DNA from: Serratia rhizosphaerae | GTDB taxonomy: Bacteria; Pseudomonadota; Gammaproteobacteria; Enterobacterales; Enterobacteriaceae | Direction: 5' to 3' | DNA length: 24,000 bases | Assembly: GCF_009817885.1 (NCBI RefSeq) | Contig: NZ_CP041764.1 | Location: forward strand, 1,093,542 to 1,117,541 | Shown: positions 508-17,705 of the stretch, piece by piece | How the letters are laid out: every line of letters begins with the position of its first letter | How positions within the stretch are numbered: the stretch's first letter is position 1 | Made by a program: the position numbers and the translations under genes | The notes under the pieces: generated by a model | Databases searched by the model: none | Seen by the model: only the letters and a program-made list of their open reading frames with translations | What the model was told of the DNA's origin: nothing

Positions 508-717
508 TTATTTTGCAGCTGGAGCCGCGGTGGCAGAGCAGTTGCCCATTGGCACATAGAACATGACTTTCGTCGGCTGACCAAACTTATTGGTGCAGTT
601 TCTGACGGCGGTACAAGCTTCAGCGCCGCCTACCGTGGTTTTCTCAAAGGTGGTCGCTGTACAGTTATAGAAACCGCCGATGATGTTGGAAGATTCCATC
701 ATGGTCATCTTTTTCAT
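508..717 (-). CDS. 69-aa small peptide with a putative 15-aa double-glycine leader and a 54-aa four-Cys core (candidate class II microcin/bacteriocin-like precursor)
   Basis: This is the internal ATG of track ORF 508..780, preceded by AAGGAtaacaaaATG. Sequence: MKKMTMMESSNIIGG/FYNCTATTFEKTTVGGAEACTAVRNCTNKFGQPTKVMFYVPMGNCSATAAPAAK. It has no hydrophobic Sec signal. The core is rich in Gly, Ala and Thr. The flanks are AT-rich and two hairpins lie downstream. Confidence 0.6.
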   Translation of the reverse strand: MKKMTMMESSNIIGGFYNCTATTFEKTTVGGAEACTAVRNCTNKFGQPTKVMFYVPMGNCSATAAPAAK

Positions 718-2649: not shown

Positions 2650-3969
2650 CTAAAGGCGGCGCTCGATGTCCTGAGCGCCAACTGAATGCTCCCCCGCCGG
2701 CGCATCGGCGGGGAGAGAATGCGCGCCGTGGCGCGTTCTTTTCGGCATCATATTGTTCATATCAATACCCGATGGCTTCTGATAGATACCCAGCGCGAAA
2801 TAGCGGGCGGTGGCGTACATGTATTCGAAAATTTCCGACTGCGTATCTTCGTACTCGCTCCAAAACACCTTCGAGGTAAAGCAGTACACCTCGATAGGCA
2901 ACCCCTCGGAAGTCGGGCTAAGCTGGCGCACCACCAGGTACATATCATTGCGGATATCGTCACGCGCCTTCAGATACTCAAGCAGATACTTGCGGAACAG
3001 GCCCAGGTTGGTAATGCCGTGGTGGATCAGCTGTTCGTCGGACAGCGTTTCCATCTTTCCGCTGAGGTAGTCGCTCAGCCCGGCGAATTTCACCGGCGAT
3101 ACCGTTTTCAACCGCTCCAGCAGCGCGCTGTCGGCAAAGGTGATGCTGGACTGATCGATAAAGAAACTGCGTTTGATACGCCGACCGCCCGAGGAGAACA
3201 TCGGCTGCCAGTTGGTATAGGTTTCGGTAATAAAGTTCTTGGTCGGCACCCGGGAAACGGTGTTGTCCCAGTTGCGGATGGTGATGGTATGCAGCGCGAT
3301 ATCCGTCACCTCGCCGCTGATATTGTCCTGCGGCATCTCCACCCAGTCTCCCAGCTGAATCACATTGGATGACGACAGCTGGATATTGGCCACCAGCGAA
3401 ATCAACGTATGCTGGAACACAAACATCAGCACCGCGGCAACCGCACCCAGACTGGAGATAATGATCACCGGCGACTTGTTGGACAGCGTGGCGATCACCA
3501 AAATGGTGGCGATCGACGACACGATGATCTTGCCGATCTGCACATAGCCTTTGATCGAGTGGGATTTTTCGCCGTGCTTGCGGATATAGGCGCTGTTGCT
3601 GATATCCAGCAGTTCATTAATCAGCATCGCAGAGTGGATAATGAACAGCACGCCGCAGATCGCCTGAATGGTTTCCAACAGCCCTGACGGCAGCCCCTGC
3701 ACCAGTCGCGACAGGAAATAAACCGTCACCACCGGCACAATATTGGCCAGCCGTCTGGCGACCCGCATATCTTTATCCAGCGGATCGGATTTATGGGTGT
3801 GTAAGATAAAGCGTCTGACAATGCCCAGCAGGAACAGTTTACAGACCACAAAGGAAACGAAGCCGGCGAAGAGCAGAAAAGCGATCGACAACAGGGAAAA
3901 CGTCAGCGGCGTCGCCAGCAGCCAGTTCCAGATAGATAACAGCTCTTGCATGTCAGAGATCTCAATCAA
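2650..3969 (-). CDS. MscS-family mechanosensitive channel, YbdG (MscM)-like
   Basis: 439-aa ORF with N-terminal TM helices. The C-terminal region matches the YbdG pattern recalled from E. coli: IRNWDNT..PT, W....SGGRRIKRS, VRQL.P...GLP.E.Y.FT. The start is uncertain: TTG at 3969 or ATG at 3951. Confidence 0.88.
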   Translation of the reverse strand: MIEISDMQELLSIWNWLLATPLTFSLLSIAFLLFAGFVSFVVCKLFLLGIVRRFILHTHKSDPLDKDMRVARRLANIVPVVTVYFLSRLVQGLPSGLLETIQAICGVLFIIHSAMLINELLDISNSAYIRKHGEKSHSIKGYVQIGKIIVSSIATILVIATLSNKSPVIIISSLGAVAAVLMFVFQHTLISLVANIQLSSSNVIQLGDWVEMPQDNISGEVTDIALHTITIRNWDNTVSRVPTKNFITETYTNWQPMFSSGGRRIKRSFFIDQSSITFADSALLERLKTVSPVKFAGLSDYLSGKMETLSDEQLIHHGITNLGLFRKYLLEYLKARDDIRNDMYLVVRQLSPTSEGLPIEVYCFTSKVFWSEYEDTQSEIFEYMYATARYFALGIYQKPSGIDMNNMMPKRTRHGAHSLPADAPAGEHSVGAQDIERRL

Positions 3970-4122
3970 GGAAAATTCCCTGCCACAAGAATAGCGACTC
4001 TTCGCCGATTTTTTTCACCAAACATGTGATTGAGCGCATGGAACTGCCCGTTTGACGCGATATCTCCCCTCCCAGAAGTTCTGATAAGACGCGCGACCAA
4101 GCGCGCGCCATCCGACATAACG

Positions 4123-5376
4123 TTACACCGCCTCTTTGGCACCACGGCGCAGAGAAAACGGCCCGGCTCCGCTGAGGGTGAACACGGACATCAGCGTAAA
4201 GCCCAGCGTAACCAACCCCAGTACCAGATACGCGCCCTGGAAGCCGATGCTTTCATACATATTGCCGGCAAACACCGACATGAAAATCATCGCCAGCTGC
4301 TTGAAGAAACAGAAGCACACCAGATAGATGGTGGCCGAAAAGCGCACCTCAAACTGGCTGGTGATATATTTGAAACAGCCGACAATCAGGAACGGCACCT
4401 CAAACATATGCAACGTTTTCAGGATCACCACTTCCAGCGCCGAGGTGGCAAACGAGGAGCCGATAATACGCACCGACATAATGGCGCCCGCCAGCAGCAG
4501 CGCATTCTTGCCGCCGATACGGTTGACGATCAGCGGTGCAAAAAACATGATGGTGGCGTTCAGCAACTCGCCCAGCGTGGTGACATAGCCGAACACCCGG
4601 GTACCCTGTTCACCGGAGGCGAAGAAAGAGGTGAAAAAGTTGGCGAACTGCTGGTCAAACACATCGTAGGTGCAGGAGACACCCACCACGTACAGCGAGA
4701 GGAACCACAGCTTCGGCTGTTTGAACAGTTCCAGGGCCAGCTTCAGGCTAAAGGCGCTCTGATTGGCGCCCACGGCGTCCGCCACCACCGCAGAAGAGTG
4801 CGTATCGGTGCGTGAAAAGAACAGCAGCAGCGCCAGAATCACGGCACAGCCGGAACCCAGCCAGAACACAAATTCGTTGTTGATGGTAAACATAATGCCG
4901 ACGATCGAAGCGCACAGCGCCCAGCCCACGCAGCCAAACATGCGCGCACGGCCGAATTCAAAGCTGCTGCGGCGGCTGACTTTTTCAATATAGGCCTCAA
5001 TCGCCGGCGCGCCGGCGTTGTAAATAAAGCCGAGGTAAATCCCGCCGACGATCGAGCCCAGTAAGATATTGAACTGTAATAGCGGCCCGAAGACGTAAAT
5101 AAAGAACGGGGCAAACATCACCAGCATACCGGTGATCACCCACAGCAGATGTTTACGTAGGCCGAGCTTATCGGAGAGCAGCCCGAAAACTGGCTGGAAC
5201 AGCAGGGAAAACAGAGAAATACAGGCAAAAATAACGCCGGTATCCCGTTGGCTGATATGATTAATTTCGTGTAGCCAGATAGGGAAGAATGGGAAATAGG
5301 CTCCCATAATAAAAAAGTAAAAGAAGAAGAAAAAACCGAACATCCAAAAATTAGTATTTTTTAAATAATACATCAT
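4123..5376 (-). CDS. lacY: Lactose permease LacY (MFS)
   Basis: 417 aa, near-colinear with E. coli LacY ([34 protein letters not shown]...). Confidence 0.97.
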
Positions 5377-5398
5377 GGATTTCCTCAGTTAAAAAAAT

Positions 5399-5418
5399 GG
5401 GCAGGCCCAGGCCTGCCC
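5399..5418 (-). promoter_or_regulatory. lacZ-lacY intercistronic stem-loop
   Basis: GGGCAGGCC-ca-GGCCTGCCC is a palindrome sitting between the lacZ stop (5424) and the lacY start (5376). On the transcribed strand it is followed by ATTTTTTTAAC. The equivalent GGGCAGGCC...GCCC hairpin occupies the same place in E. coli, as I recall it. Confidence 0.6.
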
Positions 5419-5423
5419 GCTTA

Positions 5424-8516
<3,093 letters not shown>

Positions 8517-10402: not shown

Positions 10403-11007
10403 AAATGTGAAATATCCATAAAAATAGGCCGAACAAGGTGCTCAGCCACGGGTTCTTGAGCTAAATTGTTCGCCGCCGGTACTCCGCGACTGTTCTGCGA
10501 AAAATGGATATAGGGTTCCTTCCGTCGCAGGCCTAAGACTATATATCAACTATTCCGCAGCATATTATATGAATCCATCACCAGCGACCAAGAAAAATAA
10601 AATAATCAGGAGCTAAAGCATAGAGTAAACGAATCCCAAAAACGCTGGAAAAACGCCATAAAAACAATCAACACCAAGATTACTACAAAAACTGCAAATC
10701 AGGACCGATAGTGATTATTTAAAATATCAATAAATAAAAAACAATCATGGACAATTGAAATTATTTAATGAATGGCATAATTAGCATCAACATGTTGAGT
10801 TCGTCATTTTTGCTACCGGGCTGTTCCTCAGAACCTTCAGAGAGTGATAATTCGAATTACCCGATTCCTGCAGGAAAAACCGCCATAACAAGGTTGCCAC
10901 TAGCAACGCTCAGACAAGATTAATGAGCTTCTCTAATTAGCCCTAGCAAATTACCCCCTCTAATCAAATAAATCCCTCTGCGTTATGCTCTTCCCACTCC
11001 ACGATGA

Positions 11008-11329
<322 letters not shown>

Positions 11330-11349
11330 TCCCGCCACAGAAGAGGTAG

Positions 11350-12345
<996 letters not shown>

Positions 12346-13572: not shown

Positions 13573-13911
13573 ATGATAAAAACAGAAGACATCATCGAAG
13601 AAATAACCCTATGGATTGACTCAAACATTCATAAGCCCCTGCGGATTGAGGATGTGGCATCCCGGGCCGGCTATTCCAAATGGCACCTGCAGCGTATTTT
13701 TTCTCAGGTGCAAAAAATCAGCATCGGAAAATATATAAGGGAGAAAAGGTTAGCACTGGCAGAAAAGGAACTAGTTGAAACCAACGCCCCGATTATCGAC
13801 ATTGTTTGTAAATACGGCTTTGATTCACAGCAGACGTTTACCAGAGTATTTTCAAGGAATTATAAGCTGCCACCGTCAAAGTACCGGGATATGAAGAGAA
13901 TGCAGGGCTGA
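13573..13911 (+). CDS. Minimal AraC/XylS-family regulator of the MarA/SoxS/Rob type
   Basis: 112 aa from the internal ATG at 13573, with AAGGG upstream. The sequence is I..WID.N...PL.IEDVA..AGYSKWHLQRIF......S.G.YIR.KRL..A...L..T...I.DI....GFDSQQTFTRVF...Y...PS.YR. It contains only the dual-HTH DNA-binding unit. The gene is AT-rich and lies inside the island. Confidence 0.85.
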   Translation: MIKTEDIIEEITLWIDSNIHKPLRIEDVASRAGYSKWHLQRIFSQVQKISIGKYIREKRLALAEKELVETNAPIIDIVCKYGFDSQQTFTRVFSRNYKLPPSKYRDMKRMQG

Positions 13912-13927
13912 AACAACACCCCTGCTC

Positions 13928-13948
13928 GCGCCTAATGGGCGTATTTTT
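13928..13948 (+). terminator. Weak intrinsic terminator after the MarA-like gene
   Basis: gcgcc-taatg-ggcgt forms a 5-bp stem including one G.U pair, followed by ATTTTTA. It lies 17 nt after the stop codon. Confidence 0.3.
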
Positions 13949-14086
13949 ATCGCTGATTGTGCATGGTAGACGCCAACCTCAGGGCGAAAGTGCCTACTCT
14001 TCGGCAAACGTGCCGGGTGGCGCCACGATGATGCAGAGTCTTGCTGGCTGCCAAACCGACCTTTATAGATGCAATAGGCATCGCTA

Positions 14087-14557
14087 TTACTCACGCTCAA
14101 CGTTGACCACCTCTCCGTTATCTTGCAGTAAATAGCGGCCGTCATATGTAATCAATAACGTACGATCATTTTTTATCTGTCTTACGGAAAACACGGCGTT
14201 CTTATCAATACAATTATCCTTGGCTTTCCTGGCATCAAAACACAGCCTGTCATACTTCCCTTCCTCTTTATAGCCGCTGCCAAAATCCCAAAAAGTAATG
14301 GAGAAACGTCCAGAATCAGGAGATGGGTTAGGTATACCATAGTTTTCACTTAACTTACCCTTATTCTCCAACCACCAGTTTATTTTACCTTTATCGGTGA
14401 GCGGAAAATTGGTTACCAAGACGTCGCTGAAGTTATCATTAGTATAAACAGCAGCAATCCCTACAGTCCGTAACGATAAATAGAGTATATATCCGACAAG
14501 TATACAACCGACTAGAAATAATGATGCATAGCGTAAAATGTCACTCCTTACTTTCAT
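14087..14557 (-). CDS. N-terminally membrane-anchored protein, DUF943-like (function unknown)
   Basis: 156 aa from the ATG at 14557, preceded by GGAGAatatt. The longer track ORF reaching 14665 adds an implausible N-terminus. The TM segment is ASLFLVGCILVGYILYLSL. The remainder (VLVTNFPLTDKGKINWWLENK...FWDFGSGYKEEGKYDRLCF) matches my recollection of the enterobacterial DUF943 family. Confidence 0.65.
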   Translation of the reverse strand: MKVRSDILRYASLFLVGCILVGYILYLSLRTVGIAAVYTNDNFSDVLVTNFPLTDKGKINWWLENKGKLSENYGIPNPSPDSGRFSITFWDFGSGYKEEGKYDRLCFDARKAKDNCIDKNAVFSVRQIKNDRTLLITYDGRYLLQDNGEVVNVERE

Positions 14558-14734
14558 AATATTCTCCATGAGCGTCCTAAAATGTATGCTAACACCGAAC
14601 GCCATAGTTAATTTCCTGCGCAACATACAAAGACAATATGGAAGCCAACGCCATAGCATTATCACCCCAAAGATAGGTTAAAGCCTGAGAAGCCGACTTA
14701 CTCACCATCAATGACACAATGAATAATACAATCA

Positions 14735-15136
14735 CTACGGAATATTTTTATCACCATGTTCTTTATTGATAACCTTGCTTTCATTATCAATAGCAAAATC
14801 AGCTTGAATCAATTTTTGCCGCTCTGCGCTGTCATTATCTAAACCATAATAAATCACATACGATTTACCTGGATTAAAATGATAACCAAACATAGGTAAA
14901 CACTGACCATACGCAGGATGAAATGGTGAATCATCAAATAATTTCCTAAATGGCTCATCCATTTCATTATAAATTTGAATCGAGGTAATACGATCGCCTA
15001 ACTTAGCAGGGTATAAGACACACGGTGAATTATCCTTTAGCTTAACATCCGCGTATACCGTTTCCGGCATACGATCGCCAGGCCCCGGACAACCAGAGAT
15101 GAGAAAAACAGAATACAAAACAAAAAACCTTTTCAT
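14735..15136 (-). CDS. Small lipoprotein; candidate periplasmic immunity protein for the upstream metallopeptidase
   Basis: 133 aa. The signal peptide MKRFFVLYSVFLISG/C carries a canonical lipobox (ISGC). The start lies only 3 nt after the stop of 15140..15685. It is a paralog of the frameshifted lipoprotein at 16066..16426. Confidence 0.75.
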   Translation of the reverse strand: MKRFFVLYSVFLISGCPGPGDRMPETVYADVKLKDNSPCVLYPAKLGDRITSIQIYNEMDEPFRKLFDDSPFHPAYGQCLPMFGYHFNPGKSYVIYYGLDNDSAERQKLIQADFAIDNESKVINKEHGDKNIP

Positions 15137-15139
15137 TCG

Positions 15140-15685
15140 TTACTTCCTTCCTGTGACAATTTTTCGATAGATCGTTGGGATAGCCCGGATATCATCATTA
15201 CCGCGGTATCTACCTTGCCTTCCTTGTACCTGAAAATACTTCCACCTGTCTATTCCATATACAATCATCAACCAGTAATCAGCAATGATGGATGACTGCT
15301 GTTCAAGAGAGTAATCGGTCAGTTTACCTTTATCGAGCTTATAGTAATAATTGGCGGCCCAACTGAATAGGCCTCTCACCCTTACCCATTGTCCATGCTG
15401 GTGTTGCCAAACGTGGCCTAACTCATGGATAAAGACATGCTTTCTCTCATCAGAGACAGAGCTTGCTGAAAAATCAGAGGAATATCCTTCTTCCCTGAAC
15501 CAAAGTTCACCATTAGGTGCCATAGCATAATCAGGACTCTGCAAACCAAAGGGAAAGTAGCTATCACAGTGTACCCAAACGCGGCTATAAACAATTCTGT
15601 TTCCAAAAACCTGACGAGCCATCGCTATTTCACCCAACGTCAATCGACGTAACGTCCCTTCCTTTATTTCCGTATTCTGCTCCAT
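15140..15685 (-). CDS. Signal-less HExxH zinc-metallopeptidase-like protein (candidate secreted toxin / T6SS cargo effector)
   Basis: 181 aa from the ATG at 15685, with AAGGA 8 nt upstream. The track ORF starts at 15727. The motif is FIHELGHVWQHQH (HExxHxxxHxH). The N-terminal block LTLGEIAMARQVFGNRIVYSRVWVH...AMAPNGELWF resembles the small 'Vgr-related' / DUF4157-like metallopeptidase domains as I recall them. There is no signal peptide. Confidence 0.78.
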   Translation of the reverse strand: MEQNTEIKEGTLRRLTLGEIAMARQVFGNRIVYSRVWVHCDSYFPFGLQSPDYAMAPNGELWFREEGYSSDFSASSVSDERKHVFIHELGHVWQHQHGQWVRVRGLFSWAANYYYKLDKGKLTDYSLEQQSSIIADYWLMIVYGIDRWKYFQVQGRQGRYRGNDDIRAIPTIYRKIVTGRK

Positions 15686-15836
15686 TCGCGTTATCCTTGT
15701 GACAATTCCAGTGTCTACGGATAACATGGTAACGATTATACAAAAATTTACTACAGAGATTGTTCTTAGCCACTTTAGCTAACATAAAATGCTATCGCTG
15801 ATCCCATCCAGCTCCGTTACTCCCTACAGCATCGCG

Positions 15837-15938
15837 GGGCGTTTTTCCGACGAACAGATCCTCAGTATTCTCCGCGAAGCAGAAGCCGGAGTTTCTGCCC
15901 GTGAGTTCTGTCGTAGGCACGCCATTTCCGATGCCACT
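15837..15938 (+). mobile_element. IS3-family (IS407-group-like) OrfA transposase fragment
   Basis: GRFSDEQILSILREAEAGVSAREFCRRHAISDAT matches the HTH_Tnp_1 N-terminus of IS3-family OrfA proteins (..RF(T/S)DEQI..ILREAEAG....ELCR.HGIS.ATFY.W). The similarity stops abruptly after SDAT. No orfB or inverted repeat is recognisable. Confidence 0.6.
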
Positions 15939-16065
15939 ACACCCATGTTCGATTTAACATCAGATAATAACTCCAACACTGAACGCTATATAAATTTGCT
16001 GTGTAACATGCCCGTCCATCATGGAAGCTATCTCTTGTGATCCCCCCAGGGAAACACCAGATATG

Positions 16066-16426
16066 TTATGACTTGCTATATGTTTTTGTTAACTTTTTAT
16101 GGTCATCGGTTATAAATTCAAATCTGTAATACTGACCGCTAAGCACGTAGAGCAGTTCATAATTCGTACTTTCCTTCAATAGTAAGGGAATACAAGTATC
16201 AGGATATCGCTTTACAATACCGTCCTCCATTGCCAGTGGCTTTTTATGATTATTTTCTGATGAGCTTAATGAGTAATACTCCAGCGTATCCCCAGGAGAA
16301 GAAGTTATACATATACGGTTTTTATCTACAGTAGCATCACCTGCCTGTTGAAAAGTAAGCCTATCGCCAGCACATCCCGTTAGAAATACAAGAAAAATAA
16401 ATAAAGAAGGAAGGATATTTAATCAC
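16066..16426 (-). pseudogene. Frameshifted small lipoprotein, paralog of 14735..15136 (orphan immunity-like gene)
   Basis: AGGAGG lies 9 nt before the GTG at 16426. The starting frame reads MIKYPSFFIYFSCISNGMCWR*. Shifting frame inside a T5 run (A5 at 16393..16397 on the plus strand) gives ...FLVFLTG/CAGDRLTFQQAGDATVDKNRICITSSPGDTLEYYSLSS...YPDTCIPLLLKESTNYELLYVLSGQYYRFEFITDDHKKLTKTYSKS*, ending at 16066. The total length is 361 nt (3n+1). Deleting one T restores a 119-aa lipoprotein with signal peptide MIKYPSFFIYFLVFLTG/C. Confidence 0.6.
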
Positions 16427-16663
16427 TTAAGAAAACCTCCTGATAAATTCTTGCATTCTCCAACCAAATAATTCACAACTGCGTCGCATCATAGTTCGTT
16501 AATACTTCCTTATCTTATCTATAAAAACAACTAGAAAACCAATATATTTACACCATAAAAAACACATAAGAACAGTCATATTAATTATTATTAATAATAA
16601 AAACATTATGACTAGTTTATATTATCGAGAATTATAACCCATTGTTACATCATGTATACTTTG

Positions 16664-16758
16664 ATCTATGGCACATTTATTAAAGCAGAGTGAGGAAACA
16701 TAAAAAATCTATGGCACATTTATTAAAGCAGAGTGAGGAAACATAAAAAATCTATGGC
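16664..16758. repeat. Perfect 43-bp tandem direct repeat (2 full copies plus 8-9 nt of a third)
   Basis: The unit tctatggcacatttattaaagcagagtgaggaaacataaaaaa occupies 16665..16707 and 16708..16750 and is identical in both. A third start, tctatggc, occupies 16751..16758. The repeat lies 64 nt upstream of the Tlde1-like start codon. Confidence 0.95.
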
Positions 16759-16821
16759 GAGATATCTAAGAAATGGAACCATGCTCGTATTTAACATGGT
16801 TATACTTAAAGGGATATTGAT

Positions 16822-17190
16822 ATGGCTTGGGTTTATCAGCAAAGCACAGGAAAATTATCTAGAAATGGAAAATTGGTTAGTATTGGGTATGCGGGCGCGG
16901 ATAAAGGAAAGAACAATCCAGAGCTTCAGAACGTGGCCAACGTTGGTCCCTTGCCGAGGGGAAAATACATCATCACCGGACGCCCATTTCATCATCCCAC
17001 CACAGGAAAATATTCCATTCGCCTGCAACCGTGCCCATCAAATGAAATGTTCGGGCGAGCTGGCTTCTTGATTCATGGTGATAGCATTGCCCGACCAGGG
17101 ACAGCATCTACCGGTTGCATTATAATGCCACTACGAACACGACAGGAAATATGGGCAAGCAACGACAGATACCTCGAGGTGATCCTATGA
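16822..17190 (+). CDS. Tlde1-like (DUF2778) L,D-transpeptidase-fold T6SS antibacterial effector
   Basis: 122 aa with no signal peptide. The sequence is W.Y.QSTG.L..NG......GYAG.D.GKNNPELQNV.NVGPLPRGKY.I...........Y.I.L.P.....FGR.GFLIHGD....G.AS.GCI. This carries the His...(S/T)xGC catalytic signature and overall pattern of DUF2778/Tlde1 as I recall it. Confidence 0.82.
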   Translation: MAWVYQQSTGKLSRNGKLVSIGYAGADKGKNNPELQNVANVGPLPRGKYIITGRPFHHPTTGKYSIRLQPCPSNEMFGRAGFLIHGDSIARPGTASTGCIIMPLRTRQEIWASNDRYLEVIL

Positions 17191-17525
17191 ATAAGCTTTT
17201 ACTGATCGCCGGGCTGATGTTCACCATCTCCGCCGGGGCAGCATCTCCCGGCTGTACATCATGGCCGATGAACATGGCTGAAGTCTGGATGAAAAATGAA
17301 AAAATTGTTGATATCGCAGATATTGACGAGGCAAAAACAGAATCCAAACTGCTGGCTATCGAGAAACATGACAAAGGAGAATACACACAGATTTATCACT
17401 TTGTATTTCATGATAAAAATGGGAATAAGTACGAAGTAATCACGCAAAATGACGCATCGGCTGAGGAGTGCTCATTAAGCGACGTTAATGTGTTCTTGAT
17501 ATCTAAAAGCACAGACAACCACTGA
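17187..17525 (+). CDS. Periplasmic small protein; candidate Tldi1-type immunity protein
   Basis: 112 aa from the internal ATG at 17187 of track ORF 17115..17525. The start overlaps the effector stop in an ATGA junction (17187..17190). It has a Sec signal peptide, MNKLLLIAGLMFTISAGAA/S. The arrangement is that of an effector/immunity pair. Confidence 0.68.
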   Translation: MNKLLLIAGLMFTISAGAASPGCTSWPMNMAEVWMKNEKIVDIADIDEAKTESKLLAIEKHDKGEYTQIYHFVFHDKNGNKYEVITQNDASAEECSLSDVNVFLISKSTDNH

Positions 17526-17705
17526 CAGCAGTAGCCATCTCAGCGGTGTCTGTCTGGAAACTGTCGTGAGGATAGGAAATACTTATGGTTGTGGATGCAA
17601 TTCAATACGATACGACTCTGATATAAAGATCTGCTGAAGTTGGCAATCAAGAAGGTGACTCGTCTGTTATGCGAGGAGCAGACGTTATAACGGACCCCGT
17701 GTATC

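Follow-up and report, generated by a model that had tools for sequence, protein, structure and literature searches.

A Tpe/Tpi-type metallopeptidase and lipoprotein pair, very probably an orphan T6SS cargo effector and its immunity protein, on the chromosome of Serratia rhizosphaerae

A small low-GC islet beside proBA

The 24-kb stretch of S. rhizosphaerae DNA analysed here (the window) contains a small islet with a GC content of 36-45%, compared with ~60% in the flanks. The islet lies between the gene of an AraC-family regulator and a GNAT acetyltransferase gene that adjoins proBA. Its genes and gene remnants are listed in Table 1; the three minus-strand genes for a metallopeptidase, a lipoprotein and a DUF943 protein, on which an earlier first-pass annotation had focused, were all found where that annotation had placed them. 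A megablast search of the islet against E. coli genomes gave no match, so there is no annotated counterpart to borrow from. A promoter and terminator scan of 13800-17700 scored no higher than shuffled sequences (12 vs 11.9 and 4 vs 2.7, respectively) and yielded no usable operon boundaries.

Table 1 Features of the islet, with positions counted from the first nucleotide of the window
Feature	Position	Strand	Basis
Orphan DUF943 gene, 156 aa from MKVRS, N-terminal membrane anchor	14087..14557	-	Pfam DUF943
tpi-like gene, 133-aa lipoprotein, predicted cognate immunity	14735..15136	-	DUF7480, NF045617
tpe-like gene, 181 aa (21.4 kDa), putative stand-alone gluzincin metallopeptidase effector	15140..15685	-	VgrG2b C-terminal domain homology
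IS3-family transposase remnant (HTH_Tnp_1)	15789..16040	+	Pfam PF01527, 2.2e-07
Second, orphan Tpi-type (NF045617) lipoprotein gene, inactivated 5' end	16066..16425	-	Comparison with L083/L084
Tlde1-domain (L,D-transpeptidase-like) T6SS effector gene, 122 aa	16822..17190	+	Pfam Tlde1_dom
Candidate Tldi-type periplasmic immunity gene, 112 aa	17187..17525	+	Position and hydropathy only

The peptidase sequence, read from ATG 15685, includes FIHELGHVWQHQH. This start is preceded by AAGGA 8 nt 5' of the ATG, its position is common to most of the aligned peptidase homologues, and the resulting length of 181 aa is also given by the gene callers in six related contigs; an alternative ATG upstream, at 15727, leads to a peptidase of 195 aa. 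The N terminus is devoid of a hydrophobic stretch, with a maximal Kyte-Doolittle mean of 0.54 over 15 residues for segments starting at residues 1-30, which bears out the earlier statement that the protein lacks an export signal. In the public record (WP_111737661.1) it is labeled 'type IV secretion protein Rhs'. The ATG of the lipoprotein gene follows 3 nt past the peptidase stop codon. The signal sequence of the lipoprotein, MKRFFVLYSVFLISG, runs up to the cysteine of a lipobox (L-I-S-G/C) with Pro at +2. Both the lipobox and the tight spacing had been described before, and both were seen again here.

On the other side of the peptidase gene, the remnant of an IS3-family transposase separates it from the frameshifted orphan tpi-type gene; complete IS genes are found nearby in the sister strain L082. 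The GTG start of this second Tpi-type gene is thrown out of frame by a 4-nt insertion (CCTT). Its intact counterpart of 118 aa in L083 and L084 matches NF045617 (E=9e-17), and the copy in the window is 95.6% identical to this version over residues 5-118. The frame was broken independently by indels of +4 nt here and -11 nt in sister strains, and both lie at one CCTT/TCTT tract in the signal-peptide region. Going by this sequence pattern, the indels could reflect slippage-driven on/off switching and not decay.

A neighbouring Tlde1-like pair, also reported by the first-pass annotation, is real. The product of 16822-17190 matches Tlde1_dom (E=1.6e-12; 48.4 bits, cut-off 30.1) and is publicly labeled 'tlde1 domain-containing protein'. 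Its stop codon is overlapped by 4 nt by the start of the next gene, whose product of 112 aa has a signal-like hydrophobic segment at the N terminus and matches no Pfam or NCBIfam family. The further neighbours of the peptidase-lipoprotein pair are themselves T6SS items by Pfam, a Tlde1 domain and DUF943. A small low-GC islet of T6SS toxin and antidote genes, comprising the peptidase/lipoprotein pair, the DUF943 gene, Tlde1/Tldi1 and the decayed second Tpi gene, is the best explanation for this assembly.

The peptidase and its lipoprotein partner

The peptidase had to be identified by sequence and fold searches of the PDB because no NCBIfam model matched it and Pfam gave only sub-threshold matches to DUF6782, Peptidase_M78 and eCIS_core (E 0.1-0.2), which are generic HExxH families. 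The match to eCIS_core (PF13699), which we take to be DUF4157, had E=0.17, scored 12.5 bits (cut-off 22) and spans the HExxH region only. Annotation as DUF4157 does not define the VgrG2b-type metallopeptidases, although it is frequent among them according to Wood et al. (PMC6899460). With phmmer, residues 13-140 of the peptidase were aligned to residues 99-230 of the PDB chain 6h56_A, the C-terminal domain of VgrG2b (E=5.4e-25, 91 bits). The fold comparison that had been proposed gave the same answer: Foldseek, run with the AF2 model of the peptidase (pLDDT 86.7, pTM 0.85) against the PDB, returned 6h56_A with E=1.1e-9, a probability of 1.00, a TM score of 0.60 and 36% identity. This was the sole significant fold match; the next ones had E>1. 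Judged by these comparisons, the peptidase and the C-terminal effector domain of VgrG2b are genuinely homologous, which goes beyond mere analogy and makes the VgrG2b precedent stronger than was assumed when it was first invoked.

In an alignment of 31 peptidase homologues, H87, E88, H91 and E128 are invariant, and H95 and H97 vary. E128 pairs with the glutamate in the 6H56 segment 'NIEQQ'. Counting residues identifies this glutamate as E983, the third zinc ligand of VgrG2b (PMC6899460). H87, E88, H91 and E128 are, therefore, the predicted zinc-binding and catalytic residues. Of the motif HExxHxxxHxH that had been read from the sequence, the HExxH part holds; the variable H95 and H97 rule out its extension to a longer zinc motif.

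The lipoprotein matches Pfam DUF7480 (E=1.7e-22, 80 bits, cut-off 27) and, from NCBIfam, NF045617, 'putative T6SS immunity periplasmic lipoprotein' (E=9.4e-29, 99.9 bits, cut-off 43); a PDB sequence search with it found nothing. These shared curated profiles place it, by sequence, in the Tpi/PA0261 family of cognate immunity proteins, in keeping with the partner role assigned to it at first reading. C39 and C79 are invariant among 84 aligned mature homologues and probably form a disulfide.

Across genomes the two genes belong together. A homologous small gene lies immediately downstream of the peptidase gene in 75 of 80 genome loci, and 83 of 85 downstream-gene products carry a lipobox, followed by Pro at +2 in 56 of the 83. 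This bears directly on the idea of a housekeeping cytoplasmic zinc peptidase that lies by chance beside an unrelated lipoprotein gene, for which the weak Pfam matches to generic HExxH families could be quoted. Against it stand the strong and specific homology to the VgrG2b toxin domain, the near-invariant lipoprotein partner, the location in a low-GC islet and the presence of several paralogous peptidase copies per genome, in variable islands. We regard a housekeeping role as effectively refuted by the sequence and fold matches to 6H56 together with the linkage to the lipoprotein gene, and give it practically no credence.

An orphan DUF943 gene next to the pair

The third gene had been described as encoding an N-terminally anchored, DUF943-like protein about 180 nt downstream, and this was confirmed: the gene begins 177 nt 3' of the lipoprotein gene, its product matches DUF943 (PF06092) with E=1.2e-52, and the hydropathy of the anchor peaks at 2.55 (Kyte-Doolittle, 15 residues) at residue 13. 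Its inclusion in one module with the peptidase did not survive. Such a three-gene module, in which the DUF943 protein would either add to the immunity against the peptidase or assist the peptidase as an adaptor or accessory factor, could be argued from its orientation on the same strand 177 nt on, without a convincing terminator in between, and from its place beside the pair in 6/6 closely related contigs. However, DUF943 is found near the pair in just 4 of the 80 homologous loci. In both of the four that were inspected, the Enterobacter loci L009 and L014, it occurs in arrays, and those of L009 have adjoining DUF3289 genes. Experimentally, DUF943 neutralises DUF3289 (colicin M-like) T6SS effectors, as in the pair T6EC1/T6IC1 (PMC11148199), and in Klebsiella the two are co-linked 780 times (PMC12469244). 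Moreover, sister strains carry two tandem DUF943 genes, of which the one in the window is a clean recombinant; the copy number and sequence of DUF943 change by recombination while peptidase and lipoprotein stay 99-100% identical. On the grounds of co-occurrence and the published partnership with DUF3289 we reject the three-gene module as very improbable; the DUF943 gene is separate from the peptidase module.

When the window and six sister contigs were searched by tblastn with the full DUF3289 protein of L009 (Pfam match 1.5e-103), neither a DUF3289 gene nor a remnant of one came up. The DUF943 gene thus stands here as an orphan immunity gene and not as part of a complete pair. It is a clear member of the family with its N-terminal anchor, but unlike T6EC1/T6IC1 it has no DUF3289 companion and is a chimera of two tandem paralogues. 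Its product would serve as an orphan, recombinant immunity protein when other bacteria attack with DUF3289 (colicin M-like) effectors, and from its sequence the chimera could have acquired a new specificity or combine those of its two parents.

Delivery by the T6SS and relation to known pairs

The core of the earlier reading, a toxin devoid of an export signal but active in the periplasm, countered by a lipoprotein and delivered by the contact-dependent T6SS, is supported by homology at the level of the family. For VgrG2b-Cter/PA0261 of P. aeruginosa (PDB 6H56) as well as Tpe1/Tpi1, periplasmic toxicity requires the catalytic glutamate (PMC6899460). The pair in the window shares with VgrG2b/PA0261 a homologous catalytic domain with HExxH and a downstream Glu ligand, and an immunity gene directly downstream whose product faces the periplasm and has conserved cysteines. 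In P. aeruginosa the toxin domain is fused to the VgrG spike and PA0261 is a soluble periplasmic protein, whereas here the peptidase is free cargo and the immunity protein a lipoprotein. PA0261 depends on DsbA for its stability, and its enterobacterial homologues are outer-membrane lipoproteins (PMC6899460).

Stand-alone relatives are also on record. In S. enterica subsp. arizonae, competition and heterologous expression demonstrated antibacterial activity and protection for the pair SARI_02727 (189 aa) and SARI_02726 (DUF7480, NF045617), and AF3 predicted their interaction with a high confidence score (PMC12992299). They have the architecture of the window pair, in which the gene of a stand-alone peptidase of ~185 aa precedes that of a DUF7480/NF045617 lipoprotein (PMC12992299, PMC6899460), but SARI_02727 is encoded within the T6SS cluster SPI-20, whereas no T6SS core gene lies near the small islet that carries the orphan pair studied here. 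Tpe1/Tpi1 of A. baylyi (ACIAD0053/ACIAD0054) likewise consists of a stand-alone cargo metallopeptidase of the same family and an adjoining immunity gene; the periplasmic toxicity of Tpe1 depends on its catalytic triad (PMC6899460), and testing Tpe1 required low-salt medium. Tpi1 is anchored to the inner membrane by a transmembrane helix, in contrast to the lipid anchor found here. Orphan pairs of a 'VgrG2b toxic domain' and a lipoprotein have been described in LptG-YjiA multi-conflict islands of Serratia (bioRxiv 10.1101/2024.01.28.577318). They come from the same genus, have the same architecture, lie away from T6SS clusters and are likewise misnamed in public records, as 'Rhs IV effector' or 'type IV secretion protein Rhs'; the chromosomal site is a different one, since the islet described here extends from the AraC-family gene to GNAT-proBA and has Tlde1/Tldi1 and DUF943 as neighbours.

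The 24-kb window has no T6SS core genes, and most homologous loci are orphans in housekeeping surroundings, so that the T6SS link of the window pair rests on family-level evidence. A check for co-occurrence with T6SS genes, as had been suggested, revealed hcp within 10 kb in 21 of the 80 homologous loci; in 18 of these 21, hcp lies on the same strand, at most 1 kb past the immunity gene. Large ORFs beside homologous loci were inspected for VgrG, Rhs and PAAR, and eight of nine were housekeeping or unrelated (among them kinase, nitrite/nitrate reductases, helicase, autotransporter, MCP and MscS). The sole exception is L045 from Yersinia rohdei, in which the pair is flanked by a ClpB/ClpV-type AAA+ ATPase gene (Pfam AAA_2, ClpB_D2-small) and vgrG.

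The orphan state could also mean that the pair works independently of a T6SS in its host, as a toxin-antitoxin-like or other conflict module (anti-phage, or with another export route), or that it is a relic no longer delivered. In line with this, the family loci often lie in 'multi-conflict' islands with CdiI, colicin D, GmrSD or Wadjet genes, and VgrG2b-type members occur in Sphingomonadaceae, taxa that rarely have a T6SS (Wood et al., PMC6899460). However, a homologous Serratia pair gave no phage protection (bioRxiv 10.1101/2024.01.28.577318), and T6SS dependence was shown experimentally for three homologues. The hcp linkage and the arrangement in L045 point in the same direction. With an immunity protein that faces the periplasm and a toxin without a signal peptide, only arrival of the toxin from outside makes sense. 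The intact catalytic residues of the peptidase and the 99-100% identity of both proteins among sister strains also speak against these alternatives. We consider a T6SS-independent role improbable and hold with high confidence that peptidase and lipoprotein form an orphan T6SS cargo effector-immunity pair of the Tpe/Tpi (VgrG2b-Cter/PA0261) family.

Modelled on the characterised Tpe/Tpi homologues, the zinc peptidase of 21 kDa would be produced without a signal peptide, taken up by the T6SS and injected into the periplasm of adjacent Gram-negative bacteria. It most plausibly travels as Hcp-associated cargo, which is favoured because of the size of the peptidase and because hcp genes follow many family members. 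Tpe-Tpi-Hcp trios make up about one fifth of the homologous loci, and stand-alone Tpe proteins of ~21 kDa may be cargo of the Hcp lumen. In the target cell the HExxH...E active site would cause envelope damage and lysis; the activity suggested for VgrG2b is release of lipoproteins from membranes. As stated in the first-pass annotation, no substrate is established, and this is still correct for the Tpe/Tpi family. Sister cells would be shielded by the co-translated lipoprotein, which is predicted to bind and block the peptidase and is probably sorted by Lol to the outer membrane, facing the periplasm and stabilised by its disulfide.

The description of the module as uncharacterised does not stand: Tpe/Tpi pairs have already been tested, including stand-alone cargo with lipoprotein immunity in Enterobacterales (PMC6899460, PMC12992299), and orphan Serratia copies are on record (bioRxiv 10.1101/2024.01.28.577318). 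Within a T6SS toxin family that has been characterised before, the pair is nothing out of the ordinary. Its import is small beyond correct annotation, and this copy gives no special handle on the substrate of the family. The label 'type IV secretion protein Rhs' misnames the protein and is better replaced by Tpe-type T6SS metallopeptidase effector, with a Tpi lipoprotein, and the DUF943 gene is better annotated as an orphan anti-DUF3289 immunity gene. It is tempting to speculate that the islet may be a site of active remodelling of orphan immunity genes; that it remodels such genes and that stand-alone Tpe proteins are delivered via the Hcp lumen is, taken jointly, a rather doubtful proposition. 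On a small scale, the islet illustrates the accumulation, recombination and decay of T6SS toxin and antidote genes outside T6SS clusters.

A VgrG2b-type peptidase coupled to a predicted cognate immunity lipoprotein

The peptidase gene tpe, the lipoprotein gene tpi and a DUF943 gene are all on the minus strand, and the sequence confirms their placement in the first-pass annotation. The 181-aa peptidase start is the one called in six closely related sister contigs and shared by most homologues; an upstream ATG at 15727 would give 195 aa. As had been claimed, an export signal is missing, and hydropathy analysis revealed no N-terminal hydrophobic segment. The peptidase carries FIHELGHVWQHQH and gave no match above threshold in Pfam and NCBIfam. 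A sequence search of the PDB led to 6H56, the VgrG2b effector domain from P. aeruginosa (E=5.4e-25, residues 13-140). With 31 homologues as input, AlphaFold2 gave a confident model (pLDDT 86.7, pTM 0.85), and the structure search with it, as proposed in the first-pass annotation, returned 6H56 as the sole significant PDB match (E=1e-9, probability 1.0, TM 0.60); the next matches had E>1.

H87, E88, H91 and E128 are among the residues invariant in the 31 aligned homologues, and E128 aligns with Glu E983 of VgrG2b in the sequence alignment with 6H56. Since E983 is the third zinc ligand of the VgrG2b domain (Wood et al., PMC6899460), the peptidase is a gluzincin. The proposed HxH extension of the zinc motif does not hold, as H95 and H97 vary across the homologues. 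VgrG2b had been named as a precedent; from the sequence and fold matches to 6H56 and the E128/E983 alignment, it therefore represents the actual family. The peptidase has the gluzincin domain type of VgrG2b, its active site is intact, and it lacks a signal.

The lipoprotein gene indeed starts 3 nt past the peptidase stop and encodes the expected lipobox (LISG/C, Pro at +2). Its product has a Pfam match to DUF7480 (1.7e-22), and in NCBIfam it reaches 99.9 bits (9.4e-29; cut-off 43) with NF045617, the model named 'putative T6SS immunity periplasmic lipoprotein'. The peptidase is translationally coupled to a lipoprotein from the cognate immunity family. Locus counts, here and below, refer to the best 80 of 416 confirmed relatives, which are mostly from Enterobacterales, often with several copies per genome. 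In 75 of the 80 loci the peptidase homologue is directly followed by a homologous small gene on the same strand; 83 of 85 such proteins have a lipobox, with Pro at +2 in 56 of the 83. C39 and C79 occupy the positions of two cysteines invariant across 84 aligned homologues, which fits the reported DsbA dependence of the immunity protein PA0261 (PMC6899460).

Features in and around the tpe-tpi pair (window positions)
Feature	Position	Strand	Properties	Public name
DUF943 gene	14557-14087	-	Pfam 1.2e-52; 177 nt after lipoprotein gene	DUF943 family protein
tpi, lipoprotein	15136-14735	-	133 aa	putative T6SS immunity periplasmic lipoprotein
tpe, peptidase	15685-15140	-	181 aa from ATG with AAGGA-N8 ahead	type IV secretion protein Rhs
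IS3-type transposase HTH remnant	15789-16040	+	PF01527 2.2e-07; between tpe and frameshifted tpi-type gene	
Second NF045617-type lipoprotein gene	16066-16425	-	highly divergent; upstream of tpe	
Tlde1-domain effector gene	16822-17190	+	122 aa; Pfam 1.6e-12	tlde1 domain-containing protein
Candidate Tldi gene	17187-17525	+	112 aa; signal-like N-terminus; 4-nt (ATGA) overlap with Tlde1 gene	

The DUF943 gene

DUF943 had been put forward as a third component of the module, but it is present in just 4 of the 80 loci (best 80 of 416 relatives) and its published partner is another family: experiments support DUF943 as the immunity protein for DUF3289, a T6SS effector resembling colicin M (PMC11148199), and Klebsiella has 780 instances of linkage between the two (PMC12469244). 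Five-gene DUF943 arrays adjoin the tpe-tpi pair in two Enterobacter loci (L009, 2068-7542; L014, 8417-15386). That of L009, in which a full-length DUF3289 gene (283 aa) and two truncated ones alternate with the DUF943 genes, is a typical effector/orphan-immunity array. A DUF3289 remnant was found neither in the window nor in the six sister contigs. Two tandem DUF943 genes are present in all six sister contigs and one in the window, and DNA and protein comparison with the sister contig L082 (10580-11564) identified the latter as a clean chimera: residues 1 to ~65 derive from copy 1 and ~100 to 156 (about 55 residues) from copy 2. For the neighbouring peptidase and lipoprotein, identity to the sister contigs is 99-100%. 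The best interpretation of the window's DUF943 gene is that of an orphan immunity gene subject to recombination rather than a third part of the peptidase module; it belongs to a different toxin-immunity system.

The low-GC islet and its surroundings

An islet at ~13.9-17.6 kb, which contains all the features tabulated above, has a GC content of 36-45%, compared to ~60% in the flanks. It is preceded by ubiD, an mscS-like gene, lacYZI, genes for an L,D-transpeptidase and an aldo-keto reductase, and LysR-family and AraC-family genes, and followed by GNAT, proA, proB, crl, frsA and gpt. The second Tpi-type gene is most closely related to the immunity genes that accompany the hcp-linked Tpe proteins. 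It is intact in the sister contigs L083 and L084 (118 aa, NF045617 match 9e-17). The window copy has gained 4 nt (CCTT) within its signal-peptide codons, so that its GTG start is no longer in frame; L081 and L082 have independently lost 11 nt at this tract, which likewise disrupts the gene. These frame breaks could reflect decay or slippage-type switching. The 112-aa protein had no family match in Pfam or NCBIfam; its gene is presumably a Tldi-type immunity gene. Between proA and the Tldi gene, L082 holds complete IS genes together with a restriction-modification gene of type IIG (N6_Mtase/Eco57I; 5331-7610), and L083 a different insertion (DUF3987, antirestriction, DUF932).

Two further observations concern the rest of the window. 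The low-GC first kilobase contains a 69-aa Cys-rich ORF (508-717, minus strand; MKKMTMMESSNIIGG/FYNC...) with a double-glycine-like motif past residue 15 and a borderline DUF4762 match (5.5e-06, 26.6 bits, cut-off 27); its product could be a small peptide that is secreted or bacteriocin-like. Just 5' of the intact aldo-keto reductase gene, two short ORFs of 63 and 60 aa overlap each other (11020-11329, plus strand). They had no Pfam match at E<=0.01 but look like pieces of another aldo-keto reductase gene that has been disrupted.

T6SS linkage and the Tpe/Tpi family

The 24-kb window contains no T6SS core genes. As regards the proposed co-occurrence with T6SS, 21 of the 80 loci (best 80 of 416) have an Hcp gene (PF05638, cluster representative 7.9e-26) no more than 10 kb away, 18 of them on the same strand and at most 1 kb past the immunity gene. 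The majority of the loci are orphans in unrelated housekeeping contexts. The tpe-tpi-hcp trios in about one fifth of the loci (L049, L054, L058, L062, L063, L065, L069-L071, L077-L080 and others; hcp at about 10860-11400) suggest that delivery of this subgroup depends on Hcp. The Yersinia rohdei pair (L045) is flanked by vgrG and a gene for an AAA+ ATPase of the ClpB/ClpV type (Pfam AAA_2, ClpB_D2-small). Further orphan pairs are present in S. rubidaea genomes. In one (L087, 10001-12486) four DUF7480 immunity genes in succession lie behind one tpe, where L088 has a single one; a lone further DUF7480 gene lies 6 kb off (3958-4359), and the island also holds CdiI_2, an HNH/ScoMcrA-like gene, colicin D with its immunity gene, and JetB. 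This Proteobacteria-type locus also occurs in records labelled Vagococcus sp. WN89Y (L005) and Chryseobacterium sp. 18061 (L062); upstream ORF sizes in L005 agree with dsbC-recJ-prfB-lysS identified in other loci, and contamination or mislabelling of both assemblies is probable.

Wood et al. (2019, PMC6899460) solved 6H56 and demonstrated that VgrG2b-Cter kills from the periplasm, dependent on E936, and is bound by its periplasmic immunity protein PA0261; lipoprotein release from membranes was a suggested activity. In many Enterobacteriaceae the domain is a stand-alone cargo effector followed by a PA0261-homologous lipoprotein, of which SARI_02726 fractionates with the outer membrane, and the name Tpe/Tpi was proposed after A. 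baylyi Tpe1/Tpi1 (PMC6899460). SARI_02727 (189 aa) and SARI_02726 (DUF7480, NF045617) were validated by competition and heterologous expression in 2026 (PMC12992299). In a survey of Serratia, cargo effectors with a 'VgrG2b toxic domain' were described as orphans that have a lipoprotein for immunity and carry the annotation 'Rhs IV effector'; one such pair did not defend against phage (bioRxiv 10.1101/2024.01.28.577318).

By analogy with these characterised homologues, a T6SS would carry the peptidase of the window into the periplasm of adjacent cells, where the peptidase would cause envelope damage dependent on zinc and the catalytic Glu. The lipoprotein, without Asp at +2, would be Lol-sorted to the outer membrane, stabilised by a disulfide, and would bind and block incoming toxin in sister cells. 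Loading in the Hcp lumen appears to be the most likely route for a Tpe-type peptidase, because of its size of 21 kDa and because hcp is so often downstream.

By exact sequence matching, the window belongs to Serratia rhizosphaerae of the S. rubidaea group, and the genes correspond to QHA86433-QHA86436 in a 5.098-Mb record. Judged by their public names, the module has already been annotated, with the exception of the effector, whose name is a legacy misnomer. The effector/immunity reading was right at its core, but the module is not uncharacterised, since the family is published and the genes are annotated: the pair is an ordinary member of a characterised, already annotated family.
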